A stretch of 64,000 nucleotides of DNA, from contig CAVPVU010000002.1 of NCBI GenBank assembly GCA_963709365.1, positions 319,594-383,593 on the forward strand, given 5' to 3'. Both the position numbers and the translations under genes were made by a program. Below, piece after piece: positions 4,611 through 48,351 of the stretch. Position 1 is the first letter of the stretch. Every line of letters starts with the position of its first letter. The notes below the pieces were generated by a model. That model was not told where the DNA came from and made no database searches. It was given only the letters and a program-made list of their open reading frames with translations. This DNA comes from an uncultured Chlamydiales bacterium. GTDB taxonomy: Bacteria > Chlamydiota > Chlamydiia > Chlamydiales > Rhabdochlamydiaceae.

Positions 4611-7520
4611 TCAGTTTGAACTGATGTAGACCCCGAGATCGCAGATGTCTTCCTTGGAGACGCTCTCGTAGTGGAAGTCGTTCTCACGGTTCAGCACACC
4701 TTCCATGAGCACAGCCAGGCGTTTCAAGTTGTGGCGCGAGAGGAACTCTTTGGCCAGAAGCTTCAGACGATCGTAAGAAAGCGCGTTGGCGGCATCGATG
4801 CGCTTGTCCATCCAAGTGAAGTCGCCATCATATTCGAAGGCGAGTTTGTTCAGCCTTATGCCCATGGCATACAAGTTTTCAGGTGGATTCTCTAGCGTTG
4901 TGACATGCATTTTACGAATGTCCTCGAAGCGCTCAGAAGGTAATTTTTCAGGGAGCATCTTGACGAAATTCTCCAAGAAGAGTTCAAAACGCGCAATTAG
5001 GTCGCTAGGATGATGCGTGCTGGACTGCACCGCAAAAAATTGGAGGAGTTGTTTCTCCTTTGCAAGCGGCCAAGCCTTGGCGATATAACCAGTCTGCTGC
5101 TTTGTGCGCAGTGTATCGAAGAAGGCTTCTTGAAGCGCGATGCCCAGAATTTCTTGAGCAGCTCTTTTTTCGAAGGTAAAAGATCCTTCTTCCAGAACGA
5201 GAATCACACCATTGCCTTGGCGCGGAGTATTTTGGGTGATCAGATAAGGTCCGCGTTTTTCAGGCAGCAGTAGCAGCTGCTTCTTCTGTTCCATGGCAGG
5301 CAAGAGAGGCGCGGCGTTGAGCGAGCTTTTTAGATCGTCCCAGAGTTGTTTGACTTCCCCGCCATCGATATTGCCATAGAAAAGGCTATCGATCGCACAG
5401 CTCTTGAAGAGCGTCTTACAAAAAGAGATGAACTCATCGTAAGTAATCCCTCTGAGGGAGTTTAACCTTTCAGCGGAGGTGGGAGCGTCGTTATAGAGAA
5501 TACTGTCTAAAAGCTCGCGCGCTTGAAGAAGAGGTAGCCCTTTGGTGCCATTCTCATACTCACTTAGGATGGCCTGCTTATAAATTTCAAACTGCTCTTT
5601 CTGAGGTTGAACCTCTTTGAAGTTCTTAAAAATCTCTCTTAAGAGCAGCGGGGCTTTAAAATTATACCCGTGCAAAGCGACGATGAGTTTCAAATCTTGC
5701 ACATCCAAGGCAAGATCTAACCCAGCCATTTCCGCATACCAGAGCGTTGATGAGAGTTTCTCTGTGAAAGCCTTGATATAGAGGTCTGTCAAAGCGGCCA
5801 CTCGGGCGCTGCCATCGATTTGCGACGTTTTAATCGCAAAGGTGGCGAATACTTCCGGAACAAGATAGCGCTTATCTTGAGCATAGTAGAGCTTACCAGA
5901 CCGATCATCGACGAGCAGCGTAGGGATGACGGGAGCCTGACTGCTCTCTTGCGCCAGTGCCAGATTAGAAAAATCGGGCATAAAAGGGTTTGGAGCGGGC
6001 AGAGAGATCTGAGGATGCGGAGTGAGTTTGGCCCAAGCGGCCAATTTATCCGCTGGGATCTCTTTAATCGTATATTCAGCTTCCATCCACTTCTCTTTCT
6101 TGTCAGTCTGGATGCCGGTTTTTTCAGGATCGGCCTGCAAAAAGTAGATGCAACTTTCAGGAGTTAACGTGCGCAGGAAAGCAGAGAGAAAAGTGGCGTC
6201 GTAAGCAGTTGGGATGAGGGTGTGTTCGGGATAGGTGGCTAGGTCTTCATCCATGATGTCGTGCGCATGTTTCGAGATGAACTCAAAGGCATCTTGGCGC
6301 GACTGGTACTGATAGTTCAAAGCGGCTATCTTTTGCATCTCATCGAAAAGACGAACTGGAATGCCCTGTTCTTTAAGGCGGGCCAGTGTCTGGTAGACGC
6401 GTGCAATTACCGTGTTGGTCTCTGAAATGCCTTGCGGGGTGAGATCGATATCGATATTGAAGATGAGTTTGCCTTTAGACTGCATATCGCAGCTCGCTCT
6501 CAAAGACTCGGCCAATTTTTCACGTTTCAGCTGTTCGCTCAGGCTGTTTTGCGTTTCACTATTTAGTACAAAGGCCACCAGAGAAGCCATGGAACGCTTA
6601 TCAAAGTCGAACAGGGTGGAAGGAATTTCCCACATCAGCGAGAGAACTCTCAAGTCTCTGATCGGCTTGAGATAAATCATATGGCCGCGCTGCTGCGGAG
6701 ATGAGAGCTGTTCGGGTAGAGGTCTCTGGACGACCTGCCTTATAGGTACTTGCGAAAAGGTATTCACCACCAAAGGCGTTAGCTCATTCATAGGGAGAGG
6801 CGAAAGCACGATGAGGTGCATTTTATCCGCGCTGTAGTGACTATCGTACCATTTTTTCAGAGCCTCTTGAGGAATATGGCCGAGTGTTTTGGCATTTCCG
6901 GTAGAAAAGGCTGAGTTAGGGTGTAGTGGGTTTCCGGTTTCTTTGAACACCATGTACTGCCGCCAGCCATCATGTTCGATGTTTTTGGCATGCTCTTGGT
7001 CGACGGCATGCAGTTCACGTTGAATGCATGAGGTGAGGAAGAGCGGATCGATGAAAAAGTGGGAAAAACGGTCTAAGGCTCCATCGAAAGCGTCGTTATT
7101 TATCGAGAACATGTAAATGGTGCGATCTGGCCAGGTCGAGGCGTTGACCTTGCCGCCGTGATCGGCGATATACTGCATATATTCAAATTCGCTCGGATAA
7201 GCCTTAGTTCCCATAAACAGCATATGCTCGAGGAAGTGGGCCGTGCCAGGGAACTCCTTCGGGTCGTTCCAAGAGCCTGCTTCGACACACAGGCCAGCCG
7301 CAGACTGCTTGACATCAGGGTCTGAGATGAGATAGACCTGCAGTCCGTTTTTGAGCACAATCTTGTCGAACTTTCTTTCGTTCAAAACGGGATTTAAAAG
7401 AGGATACGCAGACGCATCTTCAATGGTCTGGAAAGCTAGTCCTTCTTGGTTTGGACCAGCGCATGCAAGCGAAACAATAAAAACGTTAAGAGCGCTGGCG
7501 AGCGCGAATAATCTTTTCAT
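4611..7520 (-). CDS. Secreted M16 (insulinase/pitrilysin-like) zinc metallopeptidase
   Basis: N-terminal signal peptide. Inverted zinc motif HFLEHMLFMGT (HxxEH). 969 aa, the usual size for protease III / IDE-like enzymes. Confidence 0.8.
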   Translation of the reverse strand: MKRLFALASALNVFIVSLACAGPNQEGLAFQTIEDASAYPLLNPVLNERKFDKIVLKNGLQVYLISDPDVKQSAAGLCVEAGSWNDPKEFPGTAHFLEHMLFMGTKAYPSEFEYMQYIADHGGKVNASTWPDRTIYMFSINNDAFDGALDRFSHFFIDPLFLTSCIQRELHAVDQEHAKNIEHDGWRQYMVFKETGNPLHPNSAFSTGNAKTLGHIPQEALKKWYDSHYSADKMHLIVLSPLPMNELTPLVVNTFSQVPIRQVVQRPLPEQLSSPQQRGHMIYLKPIRDLRVLSLMWEIPSTLFDFDKRSMASLVAFVLNSETQNSLSEQLKREKLAESLRASCDMQSKGKLIFNIDIDLTPQGISETNTVIARVYQTLARLKEQGIPVRLFDEMQKIAALNYQYQSRQDAFEFISKHAHDIMDEDLATYPEHTLIPTAYDATFLSAFLRTLTPESCIYFLQADPEKTGIQTDKKEKWMEAEYTIKEIPADKLAAWAKLTPHPQISLPAPNPFMPDFSNLALAQESSQAPVIPTLLVDDRSGKLYYAQDKRYLVPEVFATFAIKTSQIDGSARVAALTDLYIKAFTEKLSSTLWYAEMAGLDLALDVQDLKLIVALHGYNFKAPLLLREIFKNFKEVQPQKEQFEIYKQAILSEYENGTKGLPLLQARELLDSILYNDAPTSAERLNSLRGITYDEFISFCKTLFKSCAIDSLFYGNIDGGEVKQLWDDLKSSLNAAPLLPAMEQKKQLLLLPEKRGPYLITQNTPRQGNGVILVLEEGSFTFEKRAAQEILGIALQEAFFDTLRTKQQTGYIAKAWPLAKEKQLLQFFAVQSSTHHPSDLIARFELFLENFVKMLPEKLPSERFEDIRKMHVTTLENPPENLYAMGIRLNKLAFEYDGDFTWMDKRIDAANALSYDRLKLLAKEFLSRHNLKRLAVLMEGVLNRENDFHYESVSKEDICDLGVYISSN

Positions 7521-10036: not shown

Positions 10037-10171
10037 TGAATGAGCTGGGGTTTAGGTTATGTTGGCCTGATGTTAGTGAAAGTCTAGAAGTTTTTCCACT
10101 AAAAAACCGACAATGACGATCTTTGTCGTTTTGTTTTTTAAACGATATTTTTCTTGTTTAGGTCCTCCATA

Positions 10172-10575
10172 GACATGTCGGGGATAAGCCACTGCGTGTG
10201 CTAATCCCTCCGCACCCGGTTCGTGCCCAAGGGCACTTCACCTGTTTCGCAATCGAAGGTCCACTGGACCTTCTCATGTCTTCAACAGCCCCATTGAGCT
10301 TCAAAGTGTTTATTCTTTTCTTCTGAATCATAGCTGAAGCTCTGCGAGGCGACGCGAGGAGGGACCCGCACCGCCAGGTGCGGGAAGTGAGCGCTCGAGC
10401 AGCCGATCGGCTCAGATCGCAAAGCAAAATCGCTCTCACAGGAGAGCCCGAAAGGGCGCGGGAGGTTGTGTAGCACACACCTCCCCGACGAGGACGCGAT
10501 TTGGCAAAGCGAGGTGAGACGCAAGGGGGGTCGCAGGGGCCGCGCACACGTAAGTGGCGTGGAACCCGACATGTA
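10172..10575. ncRNA. GC-rich ~400-nt structured non-coding region, candidate large structured RNA (RNase P RNA is one candidate); strand and identity not resolved
   Basis: No credible ORF: the two listed minus-strand ORFs are Arg/Pro-rich artefacts. The ends are complementary (GACATGTCGGGG ... CCCGACATGT). Many internal hairpins are present, for example GAAGGTCCACTGGACCTTC. GC content is well above that of the flanks. The length fits bacterial rnpB. GGCTTATC sits directly before the terminal pairing on the minus strand. The P4/CR-I motif could not be found convincingly on either strand. Confidence 0.3.
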
Positions 10576-10610
10576 TATTGAGGCTACCTTCAAGGATCTA
10601 AAAGACAAAT

Positions 10611-11606
10611 TTATGTTCTTTCAAGCTCGGATCGAATCTTTTCTAGGAAGCCATGTTCGACTAGGCTCATGGAGCTCTTGATGCTGTTGATCATGGATTC
10701 TGGGGAGGCGGCACCGTGGCATTTGACGATGATGCCTTCCACGCCACATAGGATGGCCCCAGGATATTCCGCGTAATGCAGGCGCTGACGCAGGCCAGCC
10801 AAAACCATCTTTTGGGATAGAGAGGAGGGCTCCAAGCCATTATCTTCGAGGAGTTCGAGGATAAAGGTAGCGAGTCCCTCAGCAGTTTTTAAAAAAATAT
10901 TTCCGGAAAATCCATCGGTGACTAGCACGTCGATCTCGCCTTTAAAAACGTCGCGCGCCTCGATGTTTCCAGCAAAAGTCGCTGAACCCTCTTTTTTGCA
11001 AAGCTCTTGCAGTCGTTGATAGGCTTCGCGCAATTCGGCCGTGCCTTTGATCGGTTCCGTACCGATATTAAGAAGGCCGACGCTGGGCTTTTCGATGCCG
11101 CGGCTTTTTTGATAGGCGATGCCCATCAGAGCGAATTGCAAGAGATGTTCAGGCTTGCAACTGATATTCGCGCCGACATCGATGATGGCAATCTCCTTAT
11201 TGCGCGTGGGAAGAAGCGTCAGGAGGCCCGGCCTGTCGATGCCAGGGAGGAGGGAAAGGGTCATTTGACTCGAAGCGAGCAGCGCGCCTGTATTTCCCGC
11301 CGAGATAAAAATGTCAATTTCTTCCTTCTGCATCAGGCGCACGCCTTGCATGATCGAGGAATTTTTCTTCTTACGCACGGCGACAAGCGGATCCTCGTCC
11401 ATACCGATCACTTCTGCGTTAGTTAGAGCAGAGATGCCTTGTGGGATTTTATCAACCAGGTTAGGCGGAATAAAAAGAGTAAAAAGAACCTTACCTTTTA
11501 ATTCTTCATGCAGAGCTAAAAGAGGCGGCAGGAGCTTTTCTGGCGACGTATCGCTTCCCAGTAGATCGATTGCGATACGAGGCGGAGGACTACTTGGTCT
11601 TCTCAT
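10611..11606 (-). CDS. plsX: Phosphate acyltransferase PlsX
   Basis: Full-length PlsX similarity, in the conserved yceD-rpmF-plsX arrangement. Confidence 0.85.
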   Translation of the reverse strand: MRRPSSPPPRIAIDLLGSDTSPEKLLPPLLALHEELKGKVLFTLFIPPNLVDKIPQGISALTNAEVIGMDEDPLVAVRKKKNSSIMQGVRLMQKEEIDIFISAGNTGALLASSQMTLSLLPGIDRPGLLTLLPTRNKEIAIIDVGANISCKPEHLLQFALMGIAYQKSRGIEKPSVGLLNIGTEPIKGTAELREAYQRLQELCKKEGSATFAGNIEARDVFKGEIDVLVTDGFSGNIFLKTAEGLATFILELLEDNGLEPSSLSQKMVLAGLRQRLHYAEYPGAILCGVEGIIVKCHGAASPESMINSIKSSMSLVEHGFLEKIRSELERT

Positions 11607-15273: not shown

Positions 15274-16332
15274 ATGCATAGTTTTCTCCTCTGGTCGTTT
15301 TTAGTAATCTTTTCTTCGCTTTACGCCGACCCGAAAGGCAGCGAAGGCAAGACACTTCTCCTCCCGGTCGCCCCGCGCGAACAGATCGAACGTGCACTTA
15401 TGCAAAATCGCCGTTCAGCTTTATGGAGCGAAGATTTTTCCAAGGCGCTGAATGCTGCGCAAAAAAACGGCAGACCTCTACTCCTCGCTTTTATGGGGTC
15501 GGGCTGGTGCCCATGGACGGAAAAGCTGGACAGAGAGATCTTAAGTGAACCCGCCTTTCTCGATCTGGGCAAGAATCAGATGAACTTGGTCTGGTTAAAT
15601 TGTCCTTCGCAAAGAAGCGCGACATCACCTCAAGTGCAAGAGCTCAAAACGCGCTATGGTGTGGACGAGCTTCCTACTCTGGTGGTGATCAGCCCTTCAC
15701 AAGAAGAGATGTTCCGTTTGGGTTATCTGCCCTTAACTCCAGGAGAGTTTGCCGCGCATCTGGAGACGATGATCGCAGATTATCGGCAGATCCAAGCTAA
15801 AATCGACGGTCAAGACCTTTCCAATTTGCCTCTCGATGAATTGGAAACGCTATATGTTAAAGCGCGCGAGCTAAACAATAGCCGGTATTTGAATAATCTG
15901 ATGCAGCAGGGGCTCAGCAAAGATATAGGCACCTTCTTCCTTTTAGAAAAATATACTGAGCTTTTAAAAAATGGAAATAAGCCCGAAGCAGAACTCCTTC
16001 GCGAGAAGATCATCGAACGCGATCCGAAGAATTTAAAAGGATCACAACTGCGCCTGGCCATTCTCGATTTTCAAACGAAAGCCCAAAATCTCAAGAAAAA
16101 AGCCAATCCGCGCACAGCAGTGAAGCCTCTACTTGAATATCTGCAGAAATTTGGCGCCAAGGACAAAGAGAATGTGTGGAAGGTGGAGATGATGATGGCT
16201 AAATTTCTCTTCACCAAAAACGAAGTCAAAGAGGCTCTGCAGCATGCCAACGCCTCTTACAACAGCGCGCCAGAGATAAATAAGGCTGAAATCGCTGAGA
16301 CCATCGACTACCTCAAGACTTATCTCAAGTGA
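15274..16332 (+). CDS. Secreted thioredoxin-fold protein (single-Cys WCPW motif) with helical C-terminal domain
   Basis: Signal peptide MHSFLLWSFLVIFSSLYA. LLLAFMGSGWCPWTEKLDREIL is thioredoxin-like but lacks a CxxC motif. Confidence 0.5.
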   Translation: MHSFLLWSFLVIFSSLYADPKGSEGKTLLLPVAPREQIERALMQNRRSALWSEDFSKALNAAQKNGRPLLLAFMGSGWCPWTEKLDREILSEPAFLDLGKNQMNLVWLNCPSQRSATSPQVQELKTRYGVDELPTLVVISPSQEEMFRLGYLPLTPGEFAAHLETMIADYRQIQAKIDGQDLSNLPLDELETLYVKARELNNSRYLNNLMQQGLSKDIGTFFLLEKYTELLKNGNKPEAELLREKIIERDPKNLKGSQLRLAILDFQTKAQNLKKKANPRTAVKPLLEYLQKFGAKDKENVWKVEMMMAKFLFTKNEVKEALQHANASYNSAPEINKAEIAETIDYLKTYLK

Positions 16333-16491
16333 ACCTATTTCGAAATTCTAAACTTTCGCTTTTTGCGCCTTTTTTCACACCTTTTAATCCCGCTTCTTGG
16401 CCTACTTTCTCAAGTATGTCCTGCGAAGCGGAATTAAAATCTGTGAAAAAATTCATCAAAAATCAAATATTTAGAATTTCGAGATAGGTTC

Positions 16492-17262
16492 ATGACACGC
16501 GGTATCCTCATTGCGGCCGATGCGAAGCAAGAGTGGCTGCTTCCCTGGTGGTGGTCTAATTACGCCCAAGAAAACTCCTTGCCCGTTGCTGTTGTCGATT
16601 TAGGGATGAGCAGGGAGGCACGCGCCTGGTGCAGCGAGCGTTGCATTCTAATTTCAACAGATCGCAATGTGCGTTTTATCAAGCACAAAGAAGAGCTTGA
16701 GCAAAGTACAATCCAAAAGTGGGAAGAGATCTATGGAAAGACAGTCTGGCAAGCCAGAGAAGCCTGGTTTCAGAAGCCTTCTGCCTGTCTTTGTTCACCG
16801 TTTGAGTTAACGCTCTGGCTCGATCTCGATTGCGAAATACTCGGGCCGCTCGATGCGCTATTCGCGATGCTGCCAGAACAGGCTGAGCTGGGTCTGGTCC
16901 GTGAGCCGCTCATCCGCCAGGGCGATCCCGCGCTTATGTTTGGCGAAGTGCTCTATAACTCTGGTGTGCTGCTCTTTCGTCGAAACGCTTCCTTTTTACA
17001 AAGATGGGCAGAAGAGTCGCGCTTAAAGAATGGACAGTTTTGGGGAGATCAGCAGATTCTCTCCAGACTCATCTTCAGCGAAAACATCCCTGTGCACGAG
17101 CTTCCAGAGATCTACAACCTACAGCCTTCTTCAGGCATTAATCTAGAGGCGCGCATTATTCACTGGGTCGGTAGCTGGGGCAAAGAATTTATTAAAAAGC
17201 ATGGCGGCCTTAAAGCCGATCTTTTGCACTTATTTCTTAGTTTGGATTTTTCCAAGAGCTAA
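16492..17262 (+). CDS. Hypothetical GT-A-like nucleotide-diphospho-sugar transferase (DxD); paralogue of 54510-55136
   Basis: WLDLDCEILGPLDALF and FWGDQQILSRLI resemble WVDADAVF and FWDQAGLRDVLL in the second copy. Confidence 0.4.
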   Translation: MTRGILIAADAKQEWLLPWWWSNYAQENSLPVAVVDLGMSREARAWCSERCILISTDRNVRFIKHKEELEQSTIQKWEEIYGKTVWQAREAWFQKPSACLCSPFELTLWLDLDCEILGPLDALFAMLPEQAELGLVREPLIRQGDPALMFGEVLYNSGVLLFRRNASFLQRWAEESRLKNGQFWGDQQILSRLIFSENIPVHELPEIYNLQPSSGINLEARIIHWVGSWGKEFIKKHGGLKADLLHLFLSLDFSKS

Positions 17263-20756: not shown

Positions 20757-20872
20757 TAATGATAGCGGAAATGGACGATATGGACAATATGGACGACGTG
20801 GACGCGAGAAAAAACTTAACACCCTTGTCCATAAAGTCCATGTCGTCCATATTGTCCATAATAGGAGGAGAA
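20757..20872. repeat. Palindromic iteron-like element, GTGGAC family, copy A
   Basis: ATGGACgatATGGACaatATGGACgacGTGGAC ... GTCCATgtcGTCCATattGTCCAT. The arms are ~24/24 complementary and the units repeat with a 9-bp period. It lies in the divergent intergenic region. Confidence 0.7.
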
Positions 20873-20878
20873 CCAGCC

Positions 20879-21334
20879 ATGTCAGATCTCTTAAAAAAAT
20901 TTGATAAGAAAGAATTCGAACTGCCGGAGACAGAGTTTGTGCGAGATTTTGATAGCCGTGTATTTCAGGCTATCGTACTCGAATCGCTAGCCAAGATAGA
21001 GGGCGTCTCTCTCGTCGAAGGCAATATCATCAATATGCTCTTGGGCCGCGAGCTCACCGATCGCTTGAAAGGCATCCATGTCGAACAAGATGAGAAAACT
21101 CCTTCTGTACGCATAAAAGTCGAAGTCAACGTCGCTTATGGGATCTCGTTGCCCGAGAAAGCCGAAGAAGTTCAGGTCAAAGTCGCACGCGATATCAGCA
21201 AGTTAACCGGATTGCATGTCGCTTGCGTGCATGTAGTCTTTAAGAATATCATCTCTTCGTTAAACGAAAAAGCTCGAGAAGAAGCCAAAGAAAAGCCAGG
21301 CGTGCAAGCCGGACATTATAGTGAAGAGTTTTAG
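20879..21334 (+). CDS. Asp23/Gls24 (alkaline-shock-protein) family protein
   Basis: The start is set at ATG 20879, which follows AGGAGGAG. VFQAIVLESLAKIEGVSLVEGNIINMLLGRELTDRLKGIHVEQDE is Asp23-like. Confidence 0.55.
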   Translation: MSDLLKKFDKKEFELPETEFVRDFDSRVFQAIVLESLAKIEGVSLVEGNIINMLLGRELTDRLKGIHVEQDEKTPSVRIKVEVNVAYGISLPEKAEEVQVKVARDISKLTGLHVACVHVVFKNIISSLNEKAREEAKEKPGVQAGHYSEEF

Positions 21335-24447: not shown

Positions 24448-24559
24448 TAAAGCATAAAGTACTGATAATCAATATGATATAAAATCATAGTCCGACTTTT
24501 TTGCAGTCCGTTGCGGAAAAGTCATGACTTTTTTGCAATAGCGTGCAAAATAGTCAAGT

Positions 24560-36641: not shown

Positions 36642-36758
36642 GGCGCGGTGGACAAAAGATTTGTGGACAGGGTGGACGAAGTGGACTTGGTGGACTGCGC
36701 CTGTGGACTTTTTCTTGGCGCGGTCCACTTCGTCCACAAATCTTTTGTCCACCGCGCC
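36642..36758. repeat. Palindromic iteron-like element, GTGGAC family, copy B
   Basis: GGCGCGGTGGACaaaagatttGTGGACaggGTGGACgaaGTGGACttgGTGGAC ... GTCCACttcGTCCACaaatcttttGTCCACCGCGCC. The arms are nearly perfectly complementary. It sits between the divergent glyQS and glycosyltransferase genes. Confidence 0.75.
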
Positions 36759-45991: not shown

Positions 45992-47116
45992 ATGGCTACT
46001 ACACAGATTTGGCAGTCGTATGGGCGCGAGCCTCTTCTTGCAAGTTATGTTCAAGAAGTTTCGGCTCACAATCTTCCGACAGATACCCAGCGCGTCAGGA
46101 GAGTTTATGAACGAGTTATGGAAAGAGTTAGAAGCGTAAATGTTCCCATTTCCGCTCCCGCCCAGGATCCAACTTCACTCGATGCGTCAAGGCTATCCGC
46201 TCTACTCCGAGCGGCGGATGTTTGCACCTTTTTTAAAGCTATCTTCAACCAATGTCCTGACGCAGCATCTTGGTGGGAGACTGTACAAGGAGATCTAGAG
46301 GCCAGAGCAGCTGCGGCGACTGATTGGATGCAACAGCATCCTGCACAGCTCGAAAGTATACAACGCCTCGAATTGAATGGATTAAATCTAACGCATCTTC
46401 CACCAGAGATCGGCTTATTTACTGGGCTAAGAGTTATTCGTCTTGAGTCTAATAAGCTTAGATTCCTTCCTGTAGAGCTCGGGCAGTGCCGGCAGTTGAG
46501 GTGGCTCGATCTTTCACATAATCAACTGACGACTGTTCCAGCAGAGCTTGGGCAGTGCCAGCAGTTGTGGTGGCTCGATCTTTCACATAATCAACTGACG
46601 ACTGTTCCAGCAGAGCTTGGGCAGTGCCAACGCTTGAATTTGCTCGATCTTTCACATAATCAGCTGACGACTGTTCCATCCGAGCTTGGGCAGTGCCAGC
46701 AGTTGGAGCGGCTCGATCTTTCACATAATCAGCTGACGACTGTTCCAGCAGAGCTTGGGCAGTGCCAGCAGTTGAGGTGGCTCGATCTTTCACATAATCA
46801 ACTGACGACTGTTCCAGCAGAGCTTGGGCAGTGCCAACGCTTGAATTTGCTCTATCTTTCACATAATCAGCTGACGACTGTTCCAGCAGAGCTTGAGCAG
46901 TGCCAGCAGTTGTGGTGGCTCGATCTTGCACATAATCAGATTGCCTTAGATCGCGAAGATATTTTGCGCATCCGAAATTTCCATGTGCTCTTGTTTGATG
47001 GAAATCCCGGACGCACGCAAACCTGCTGGCAGCAGATGGTAAATCTATTTTGGTTTGCTGTTTCGTGGATTAAGAGCAGCTTATGCAGCTTTTCAACAAA
47101 TCGTTTGAGCGGATAA
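45992..47116 (+). CDS. LRR family copy L6 (10 LRR units); C-terminal tail altered by a hybrid junction
   Basis: 374 aa, ending WIKSSLCSFSTNRLSG instead of WIKEQALKMVERIAQLCER. The 3' junction is a mosaic of the two inter-gene spacer variants. Confidence 0.7.
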   Translation: MATTQIWQSYGREPLLASYVQEVSAHNLPTDTQRVRRVYERVMERVRSVNVPISAPAQDPTSLDASRLSALLRAADVCTFFKAIFNQCPDAASWWETVQGDLEARAAAATDWMQQHPAQLESIQRLELNGLNLTHLPPEIGLFTGLRVIRLESNKLRFLPVELGQCRQLRWLDLSHNQLTTVPAELGQCQQLWWLDLSHNQLTTVPAELGQCQRLNLLDLSHNQLTTVPSELGQCQQLERLDLSHNQLTTVPAELGQCQQLRWLDLSHNQLTTVPAELGQCQRLNLLYLSHNQLTTVPAELEQCQQLWWLDLAHNQIALDREDILRIRNFHVLLFDGNPGRTQTCWQQMVNLFWFAVSWIKSSLCSFSTNRLSG

Positions 47117-48351
47117 ACGATGGCTGCAGCTATGCGAGAGATAAAGAATGGCATACTACACAGATTTGGCAGTCGTATGGGCGCGAGCCTCTTCTTGCAA
47201 GTTTTGTTCAAGAGGCTTCGGCTCACAATCTTCCAACAGATACCCAGAGCGTCAGGAGAGTTTATGAACGAGTTATGGAAAGAGTTAGAAGCGTAAATAT
47301 TCCCATTCCCGCTCCTGCCCAGGATCAAACTTCACTCGACATTTCGAGATTATCTGCACTGCTCAAAGCCGCAGATGTCTGCACCTTTTTTAAAGCCATT
47401 TTCAACCAATGTCCTGACGCAGCATCTTGGTGGGAGACTGCACAAGGAGATCTAGAGGACAGAGCAGCTGCGGCGACTAATTGGATGCAGCTGCATCCTG
47501 CACAGCTCGCAAATATAGAATACCTCGAATTGAATGGATTAAATCTAACGCATCTTCCACCGCAAATCGGCTTATTTACTGGGCTAAGAGCTATTCATCT
47601 TGAGTCTAATAAGCTTAGATTCCTTCCTGTAGAGCTAGGGCAGTGCCAGCAGTTGATGTGGCTCTATCTTTCACAAAATCAGCTGACGACTGTTCCAGCA
47701 GAACTTGGGCAGTGCCAGCGGTTGGGAAGGCTCGATCTTTCACATAATCAGCTGACGACTGTTCCAGCAGAGCTAGGGCAGTGCCAACGCTTGAATTTGC
47801 TCTATCTTTCACATAATCAGCTGACGACTGTTCCAGCAGAGCTTGGGCAATGCCAGCAGTTGTGGTGGCTCGATCTTGCACATAATCAACTGACGACTGT
47901 TCCAGCAGAGCTTGGGCAGTGCCAGCAGTTAGAGGCGCTCTATCTTCCGCACAATCAGCTAACGACTGTTCCAGCAGAGCTTGGGCAATGCCAGCAGTTG
48001 TGGTGGCTCGATCTTTCACATAATCAGCTGACGACTATTCCAGCAGAGCTTGGGCAGTGCCAGCAGTTGAGGTGGCTCTATCTTTCACATAATCAGCTGA
48101 CGACTGTTCCAGCAGAGCTCGGGCAGTGCCAGCAGTTGAGGTGGCTCTATCTTGAACATAATCAAATAGCTCTAGATCGCGAAGATATTTTGCGTATTCG
48201 AAATTTCCAACAGCTCTTGTTTGATGGAAATCCCGGGCGCCCGCAAACCTGCTGGCAGCAGATGGTAAATCTATTTTGGTTTGCTGTTTCGTGGATTAAA
48301 GAGCAGGCTTTGAAAATGGTTGAGCGGATAGCTCAACTCTGCGAGAGGTAA
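47083..48351 (+). CDS. LRR family copy L7 (11 LRR units); canonical ATG knocked out of frame by a 1-nt insertion, frame open from an upstream ATG that overlaps L6
   Basis: aatggcAtactacacag versus the canonical aatggctactacacag. The ORF extends upstream to 47083. The remainder is intact through ...AQLCER. Confidence 0.7.
   Translation: MQLFNKSFERINDGCSYARDKEWHTTQIWQSYGREPLLASFVQEASAHNLPTDTQSVRRVYERVMERVRSVNIPIPAPAQDQTSLDISRLSALLKAADVCTFFKAIFNQCPDAASWWETAQGDLEDRAAAATNWMQLHPAQLANIEYLELNGLNLTHLPPQIGLFTGLRAIHLESNKLRFLPVELGQCQQLMWLYLSQNQLTTVPAELGQCQRLGRLDLSHNQLTTVPAELGQCQRLNLLYLSHNQLTTVPAELGQCQQLWWLDLAHNQLTTVPAELGQCQQLEALYLPHNQLTTVPAELGQCQQLWWLDLSHNQLTTIPAELGQCQQLRWLYLSHNQLTTVPAELGQCQQLRWLYLEHNQIALDREDILRIRNFQQLLFDGNPGRPQTCWQQMVNLFWFAVSWIKEQALKMVERIAQLCER

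Follow-up and report, generated by a model that had tools for sequence, protein, structure and literature searches.

The stretch of chlamydial DNA analysed here, which at its full length of 64 kb we call the window, contains three intergenic spacers occupied by hairpins whose arms consist of short repeated words. The question that these loci raise is whether they act on the genes beside them or belong to a dispersed repeat. A sequence-only reading had offered both answers, iteron-like regulatory binding sites on the one hand and REP/MITE-like mobile elements on the other. It had placed the hairpins at 20757-20872, 36642-36758 and 55141-55290, and all three were found at these positions. The dimer pattern RTGGACNNNRTGGAC had 16 matches in the window, where dinucleotide-preserving shuffles predict 0.01, and all except one of these matches fell inside the three loci. 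Almost half of the RTGGAC/GTCCAY hexamers in the window (27 of 55) were packed into 383 bp. Outside the loci the hexamers occurred at Markov expectation (12 vs 11.7 and 16 vs 14.3 in the 64-kb window), so that isolated hexamers were neither avoided nor enriched there and give no independent sign of a trans-acting reader.

At each locus the two arms repeat the asymmetric hexamer RTGGAC head-to-tail and face each other in the layout 5'-(RTGGAC-N3)n ... (N3-GTCCAY)n-3'; a five-unit tandem array is written (GTGGACNNN)5. The left arm of copy 1 (20771..20803, + strand) reads ATGGAC, ATGGAC, ATGGAC, GTGGAC, with hexamers starting at 20771, 20780, 20789 and 20798 and all steps exactly 9 bp. Its right arm (20827..20859) carries RTGGAC on the - strand, seen as four GTCCAT units at 9-bp steps (starts at 20827, 20836, 20845 and 20854). 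In copy 2 the left module (36642..36708, + strand) begins with GGCGCG, continues with six GTGGAC units at steps of 15, 9, 9, 9 and 13 bp (36648, 36663, 36672, 36681, 36690, 36703) and has TGCGCC close to its inner end. The right module (36717..36758, - strand) repeats the left one in shortened form and as its reverse complement, and consists of GGCGCG, three GTCCAC units (36723, 36732, 36747; steps of 9 and 15 bp) and CGCGCC. Copy 3 has a left module (55141..55202, + strand) of GGCGCA, five RTGGAC units (55147, 55163, 55172, 55182, 55191; steps of 16, 9, 10 and 9 bp) and TGCGCC, and a right module (55219..55278, - strand) of GGGGCG, five GTCCAC units (55225, 55234, 55243, 55252, 55267; steps of 9, 9, 9 and 15 bp) and TTCGCC.

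The strict 9-bp period first ascribed to these arrays thus applies to most neighbouring units, 9 bp being the commonest step, but not to the outermost unit pair of copies 2 and 3 (15-16 bp) or to single steps of 10 and 13 bp. Similarly, the three loci share the construct of an RTGGAC array followed by its inverse, but copy 1 is made mainly of ATGGAC and has none of the GGCGCG/CGCGCC ends of the other two. The arms of copy 1 are complementary over 25 nt at 96%, and those of the other two loci over 36 nt at 92%, and over 20 nt at 100% plus 21 nt at 86%. Predicted folds of the single-stranded RNA had energies of -80.5, -46.5 and -91.8 kcal/mol for the three loci, with z-scores of -11.6, -8.7 and -12.9. 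An independent short-read assembly of the same organism (L001) contains copy 2 base for base, which shows that it is not an assembly artefact.

The contexts given by the sequence-only reading, two copies in divergent promoter regions and one upstream of a tRNA, were confirmed. Copy 1 has a GYF_2-domain gene (-) on one side and an Asp23 gene (+) on the other, its right arm adjoining the AGGAGG ribosome-binding site of the latter (ATG at 20879). Copy 2 separates glyQS (-), here the fused, 1012-aa GlyQS form typical of Chlamydiota, from a family-2 (GT2) glycosyltransferase gene (+), and a promoter-like site is found directly to its right. Copy 3 follows the end of a Nucleotid_trans gene, and its right module stops 70 nt upstream of tRNA-Gln (55348-55419). 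The genes flanking the three copies have no function in common. That the hairpins might simply be annotated terminators found no backing, as copy 2 has no terminator-like site with a U-tract and no T-run follows any of the three copies. When the window and 18 array-bearing loci were compared with Rfam, only tRNAs matched at gathering score; below threshold there were just generic hairpin matches to microRNA precursors. Features of replication iterons were also missing, with no rep gene beside any locus and no GC-skew switch in the 64-kb window.

Comparison with relatives showed that the loci vary between closely related genomes. In the sister species gene order is kept, and the GT2 and Asp23 proteins are 72% and 80% identical to those of the window. 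The array is absent there at all three orthologous spacers, and RTGGAC-N3-RTGGAC did not occur once in ~41 kb of syntenic sister-species DNA. In a third relative, GCA_001464115 (L254), the spacer between glyQS and the GT2 gene measures 58 bp, compared with 198 bp in the window. The reverse situation was met at another site. A metagenome scan with the terminal module of copies 2 and 3 recovered at least one further member of the family, L248, situated in another chlamydia in the spacer from smpB to dnaN; the corresponding spacer in the window's own genome (L249) is just 25 bp long, whilst in L248 it is filled by the element. All six arms of copies 2, 3 and L248 align to AAGAAA..GGCGCG-GTGGAC-AAAAGATTT-GTGGAC-(N3-GTGGAC)n-YGCGCC, and the three elements have the ends AAGAAA..GGCGCG / CGCGCC..TTTCTT in common. 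Repeated copies were also seen in other metagenome-assembled genomes (MAGs): L073, in a different chlamydial MAG, has two paralogous array copies, and one other MAG has a 111-nt element at two separate loci (L072 and L087) with 94% identity.

These elements have inverted-repeat ends, homologous copies at non-orthologous sites and empty sites in relatives, which are features of MITE or foldback elements. Given the non-orthologous sites and the filled and empty states, they behave as dispersed, insertion-polymorphic foldback repeats of a MITE/REP-like kind. This half of the sequence-only reading is thereby better supported than the regulatory half, given the dispersed homologous copies, the presence and absence between relatives and the occurrence in every intergenic context. 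As regards a target-site duplication, the orthologous spacers are too diverged to align, and the flanking AAGA/TCTT is part of the inverted repeat and forms no clear direct repeat. A search of the neighbouring ORFs of 64 loci gave no recurrent family that could represent an autonomous parent with a transposase, and plasmid and phage collections held no similar DNA. Dispersal and presence/absence are thus what the mobility reading is built on.

The repeat is not restricted to these chlamydiae. One genome per GTDB species was scanned with a query of four TGGAC words at 9-bp spacing, for which ~1 match is expected by chance in 1.2e12 positions. At least 120 loci matched, and among the first 120 matches listed there were 76 arrays with at least three different spacers. 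Gene calls in MAG loci are heuristic; with GC3-filtered calls, 63 of these 76 arrays from the matches listed were intergenic. The sixth position of the unit, not required by the search, was C in 63% and T in 34% of a 182-unit subset (units of arrays lying outside crude gene calls, among the matches listed). On the GTCCAY strand the spacers were poor in G (~10% in the matches listed). Of the neighbour intervals that the search had not forced, 41 of 47 in the matches listed were exactly 9 bp. An inverted partner in the order RTGGAC...GTCCAY accompanied 18 of the 76 arrays, the opposite order was seen in 1 and the remaining 57 stood alone (matches listed). Most arrays in other phyla are single arms of 36-63 bp, again among the matches listed. 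In the same 850 kb, variable-spacer arrays with a different 5-mer core were rare. The family is therefore widespread, and the elements are not unique to the three sites in the window.

We assigned the 60 intergenic arrays outside the window, among the matches listed, to taxa by record title. The PVC phyla (Planctomycetota, Verrucomicrobiota, Lentisphaerota and Chlamydiota) accounted for 24, followed by Sumerlaeota (6), Hydrogenedentota (5), Desulfobacterota (5), Nitrospirota (4), Cloacimonadota (4), a MAG labelled Clostridia (3), Chlorobi (2), Acidobacteriota (2) and Actinomycetota (1), with 4 in unclassified records. This taxonomic enrichment is a qualitative one. Proteobacterial, firmicute and actinobacterial matches among those listed were mostly coding repeats or repeats of identical units. 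In viral contigs the same pattern picked out collagen-like coding repeats for the most part, in which the word is preceded by G and the sixth position is also G (61%) (matches listed). This contrast set shows that the search does not by itself produce the H-GTCCAY-Y profile. A coding reading of the arrays as (M/V)-D-x repeats was rejected, as other arrays have stop codons in their spacers and 63 of the 76 in the matches listed lie outside ORFs. One CRISPR spacer was made of GTCCAT units; its protospacer was not found in viral contigs.

No feature of the surroundings recurred with the arrays. All-against-all BLASTP of the neighbouring ORFs at 64 loci found no recurrent protein family, and no conserved motif flanking the arrays was found across phyla. 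Unpaired arrays had no orientation bias toward flanking genes (R+ 15 vs R- 18, L+ 20 vs L- 17, matches listed). An initial impression that GTCCAY arrays point at the downstream gene fell away with better gene calls, and adjacency to tRNA genes was discarded as a general rule, since besides copy 3 it was seen only at L028 among 60 loci scanned.

Which part of the element selection seems to keep can be read from its paralogous copies. Between the two copies in L073 the flanks, the loop (AGCTTTCTT) and every hexamer are conserved, whilst most spacer triplets differ, and those of one arm do not complement those of the other. Within ten paired elements the arm-to-arm spacer identity had a mean of 0.65, compared with 0.44 between unrelated elements, in a comparison in which the hexamers are intact by the way the arrays were selected; the arms of one element are thus related by duplication. 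Judged from these alignments, arm pairing is not maintained in the way that the hexamers are. With unpaired arrays free of orientation bias and no recurrent neighbouring protein, the balance favours a function or recognition on duplex DNA over a role as RNA. The main points on the other side are the recurrent hairpin at the tRNA-Gln site and the G-poor spacer strand, an asymmetry that could instead signal a single-strand (RNA or ssDNA) role.

The explanation that we consider best, and to which we give about an even chance of being right as a whole, is that these are dispersed non-coding foldback repeats of MITE/REP-like type which carry phased duplex-DNA sites for a putative oligomerising protein. 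As part of it, the three loci would have entered or arisen in their spacers after the split from the sister species. The working part would be the array on duplex DNA, offering phased sites for cooperative binding of a putative sequence-specific protein. A 9-bp step would turn each site by about -51 degrees relative to the one before, and a protein bound in this way would spiral around the helix rather than lie on one face. The candidate binder may be a nucleoid-associated type of factor that hosts have conserved, or the recombinase by which the repeats spread. That a hairpin or cruciform could form here would most simply be a by-product of the inverted arrangement of two arrays. Anatomy, dispersal, polymorphism between relatives, phase, polarity, the better conservation of hexamers than of spacers and the breadth of phyla are observations; binding by a protein, its identity, and mobility as the way of spreading are inferences. 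Of the regulatory proposal in the sequence-only reading, arrayed binding sites stay plausible and are the best account of the units, given that hexamers are conserved above spacers, the phase is kept and the unit recurs across phyla, but gene-specific regulation and replication iterons are not supported.

An unlikely alternative in our estimation, though the one with most to recommend it, makes the RNA or DNA hairpin the functional part, as a bidirectional terminator or insulator, an RNase III site or an mRNA stabiliser, with the hexamer array incidental. The predicted folds are extremely stable, copy 3 sits just past a gene end and ahead of a tRNA gene, and the tRNA-Gln spacer holds three unrelated hairpin elements (RTGGAC, ACATGT and CACCGAG foldbacks) in three relatives; elsewhere, convergent genes flank some of the arrays. 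Yet copy 2 lacks a U-tract terminator, copies 1 and 2 are situated between divergent gene starts, and 57 of the 76 arrays elsewhere in the matches listed have no inverted partner. Arm spacers are not kept complementary, unpaired arrays show no orientation bias relative to genes, and only one of the two orders that could form a hairpin is used, by 18 to 1 in the matches listed. That last polarity, with the strict phase, also weighs against a neutral origin, in which slippage would generate the 9-bp tandems and template switching the inverted duplications of a palindrome-prone genome, with neither protein nor function involved. Such an origin fits the several other foldback families in the window and its relatives and the fact that the arms of one element are more alike than chance. 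We think it improbable, because the hexamers persist even where every one of the three spacer bases has changed, more than 10 phyla have this hexamer with R at an unforced position, and in the same 850 kb few arrays have another 5-mer core.

A transcription factor bound to the repeats might control the flanking divergent promoters and the tRNA promoter, an arrangement for which two copies between divergent genes, the contact of copy 1 with the Asp23 ribosome-binding site, the promoter-like site right of copy 2 and the tandem short repeats typical of cooperative operators could all be cited. We give such gene-specific operators little credence. The arrays are missing from all three sister spacers and from the 58-bp glyQS|GT2 spacer of the third genome, and the flanking genes are unrelated; this argues that they are not operators of neighbouring genes, and the regulatory role first proposed for the neighbours is not supported. 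Elsewhere in the matches listed the arrays occupy any intergenic context with no recurrent neighbour gene. Clusters of DnaA boxes, which would titrate DnaA or mark replication loci, were considered as the unit NNGTCCACN resembles the actinobacterial DnaA box TTGTCCACA, of which GTCCAC forms positions 3-8. The length of the box equals the 9-bp period, outer units of copies 2 and 3 match it at 8 of 9 positions, L248 is directly upstream of dnaN, and the opposed arrays are reminiscent of E. coli oriC with its two halves. Against this, the unit profile in the matches listed has no T-T before G, has A after C at just 0.19, and includes one third of units as GTCCAT (34% with T at position 8). Contiguous 9-mers would leave no gap between boxes, three arrays fall within 64 kb, the window's own genome has no element in the spacer ahead of dnaN, and the window has no GC-skew switch. 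A box of the form TT(A/G)TCCACA, in which position 2 is T and position 9 is A, was accordingly rejected for the misfit of the unit profile and because the site upstream of dnaN is not conserved, and we hold this idea to be the most improbable of those weighed here.

Several known systems resemble the foldbacks in part. Replication iterons are direct repeats of 17-22 bp beside rep/dnaA and an AT-rich unwinding element, at one origin; the elements here differ in having a 9-bp period, three separate loci, no adjacent rep gene and no GC-skew switch in the window. They are also unlike intrinsic terminators, which are GC-rich hairpins with a U-tract behind a gene, in that they lack a U-tract and have two copies between divergent gene starts. 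The REP/BIME/REPIN sequences of proteobacteria are short, extragenic and multicopy, often occur as inverted hairpin pairs and are mobilised by RAYT transposases. A REP is a single imperfect palindrome of 20-40 nt with a conserved 5' GTAG, is species-specific, and is served by a RAYT that is a single-copy host-encoded protein. The RTGGAC elements are REP-like in their tolerance of any intergenic context and in their variation between close relatives, but they consist of phased tandem hexamers, have no GTAG head and are spread across phyla. With MITEs and Foldback transposons, the latter eukaryotic elements whose arms are built of short tandem subrepeats, they share a non-coding nature, inverted-repeat ends, dispersal and insertion polymorphism; unlike these, they had no autonomous partner at the 64 loci. 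Ribbon-helix-helix proteins bind abutting asymmetric units of 7-10 bp, direct and inverted, cooperatively and as small oligomerising proteins. Their sites (the omega heptads of pSM19035, ParG/ParR sites and MetJ metboxes) and MraZ boxes have periods of 7, 8 and 10-11 bp and are plasmid- or operon-specific, and MraZ/AbrB-type sites are TGGGN-N5 repeats. The RTGGAC arrays would by analogy follow the same logic of abutting repeats, but have a 9-bp period, are chromosomal and are numerous. In the literature searched we found nothing relevant on a MraZ/AbrB-type link, nor on GTGGAC, GTCCAC or TGGAC repeats.

The closest published description is that of the 'predicted global regulator binding sites' of Geobacter metallireducens, classes 1-3 (Aklujkar et al., 2009; PMC2700814). 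Such sites occur between genes in multiple copies, each composed of 3-5 tandem 7-9-nt repeats, and most form opposite-strand pairs at variable distance. They are species-specific, being absent from G. sulfurreducens, and the authors suggested IHF/HU as candidate binder (PMC2700814). They have in common with the RTGGAC arrays a paired tandem-repeat, multicopy, intergenic and lineage-specific architecture. Their units are GTTGCTYN, TCTCCGTS[Y] and MTYCTGA where ours is RTGGAC, and no conservation across phyla is reported for them (PMC2700814). As the unit sequences are unrelated, the likeness is one of kind and not of homology. An intergenic foldback repeat is a known kind of element; what is unexpected is a strictly phased hexamer common to many phyla.

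That one hexamer is conserved in so many phyla is easier to account for with a conserved host protein, or with a domesticated recombinase that has been inherited widely, than with a large number of unrelated transposases. We therefore tentatively raise a further possibility, which we regard as rather less probable than not, that the RTGGAC 9-bp arrays are sites of a conserved oligomerising DNA-binding protein common to the PVC phyla and several neighbouring ones (which would be Hydrogenedentota, Sumerlaeota, Cloacimonadota, Nitrospirota, Desulfobacterota and Chlorobi), and that arrays of CACCGAG units, which would share the 9-bp period, are the sites of a paralogue. The binder might then be a nucleoid-associated factor or a domesticated recombinase, in a pairing analogous to that of REP and RAYT, and foldbacks would be the way in which this chlamydia lineage carries the sites. 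If a conserved protein does read the arrays, they would be the mark of a system that organises genomes or spreads repeats in phyla that have been little studied, and that include Chlamydiota, several candidate phyla, anammox planctomycetes and relatives of Akkermansia. The definition of the cis element is by now good enough for it to serve as bait for a candidate binding protein. If they prove to be selfish repeats and nothing else, they extend the list of bacterial MITE/REP-like elements in a useful but unremarkable way. In either case environmental chlamydiae have several insertion-polymorphic foldback families that reshape promoter-proximal spacers, which bears on annotation, strain typing and the reading of 'conserved' intergenic hairpins.

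Other foldbacks were noted in the window and its relatives. Two with arms of CACCGAG units lie at 61390-61465, with steps of 9 and 10 bp, and at 52866-52945. Further long palindromes are present in the window, that at 56386-56556 being an insertion relative to the sister species. A GC-rich 410-bp element at 10163-10575, the 'candidate ncRNA' of the sequence-only reading, is bounded by ACATGTCGGGG/CCGACATGT and has copies in two relatives. The GGTCCACTGGACC hairpin at 10258, which had been taken as a link to the family, is a single 6-bp palindrome in the opposite order inside this unrelated repeat, and the link was dropped. The spacer upstream of tRNA-Gln is occupied by the RTGGAC foldback in the window, by an ACATGT element in the sister species and by a CACCGAG foldback in GCA_001464115. 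That between smpB and dnaN contains the RTGGAC foldback in L248 and an ACATGT element in GCA_001464115. Both spacers are either insertion hot spots or sites where any hairpin is tolerated or useful, and with three different hairpin elements at the tRNA-Gln spacer the hairpin itself could be selected there.

To the spacers that hold RTGGAC foldbacks (inverted pairs of RTGGAC hexamer arrays) we could assign further elements in related chlamydiae. A GC-rich element of 410-500 bp, with boundaries ACATGTCGGGG...CCGACATGT, was found at 10163-10575 of the window and, among the other loci compared (L-numbers), at about 16870-17375 of L127 and at about 10500-10970 and 19064-19215 of L250. Its right half is conserved (e.g. 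GACTCAGATCGCGAAGCAAAAT and GCGAGGTGAGGCGCAAGG), its intergenic sites differ among three related chlamydial genomes, and in two relatives it occupies the exact spacers that hold RTGGAC foldbacks elsewhere. The window copy is the element that the sequence-only reading had named a candidate ncRNA; comparison of the GC-rich element with Rfam gave no match.

A second family of array-foldbacks has arms made of CACCGAG units, spaced 9-10 bp from one to the next, after which CTCGGTG units follow in inverted orientation. It was seen at 61390-61465 and 52866-52945 of the window, which have the loop GGAAAATACAAGAATTA in common, as well as at L250 5690-5780 and L254 16795-16965. The last of these loci is from GCA_001464115, where the CACCGAG foldback lies upstream of tRNA-Gln, the site taken by the third RTGGAC copy in the window.

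Other long palindromes were also present between window genes. That at 56386-56556 (170 bp, with 28-nt arms that are 93% complementary) lies directly past the stop codon of prs, the gene for ribose-phosphate pyrophosphokinase, and as the prs-L25 spacer of the sister species, a related chlamydia with the same gene order, is only 85 bp long, we read this palindrome as an insertion. The prs gene itself (55460-56389) is broken into three overlapping ORFs in the window and is intact in the sister species (315 aa), so that the window version is either a pseudogene or the product of frameshift errors in the assembly. Further palindromes lie at 24494-24555 and 16330-16492. The right end of the latter has a 27-nt match (96%) directly upstream of smpB in the same genome (L249 4-30), and this palindrome is therefore also multicopy. 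Inverted repeats were found inside genes too: two neighboring paralogs of 374 and 422 aa (45992-48351) contain an inverted-repeat pair that is identical in both (46092-46263 and 47249-47420); this indicates that the gene was duplicated in tandem.

In Lentisphaeria MAGs, RTGGAC arrays were found within mosaics (L014 7340-7750, L085 1800-2200, L077 1450-1700 and L082 1-400) whose other parts are a conserved stretch of ~100 nt that contains three small hairpins (..CCCCAGGCTAAAGCCTGGGGTTAAGCATGGTTAAGCGCCTACGGCGCAA) and long tandem arrays of 7-nt repeats (CTCGCCS, GAATTAT, CATTCAG), an arrangement reminiscent of BIME-like mosaics.

On the IMG/VR contig L131, a CRISPR array with 15 copies of a 29-nt repeat (CGGTTCACCCCCACGTGCGTGGGGAATAC) includes one spacer (4876-4908) that itself consists of GTCCAT-N3 units, four in number, so that such an array must have been taken up as a spacer by some host. 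A search of viral contigs for the protospacer did not find it. RTGGAC arrays of the intergenic type also occur on two viral (IMG/VR) contigs (L229 2363-2395 and L144 1682-1723). Reading the translations by eye, one lies between apparent terminase and Mu-type portal genes, and the other adjoins an apparent ECF-sigma-like gene.
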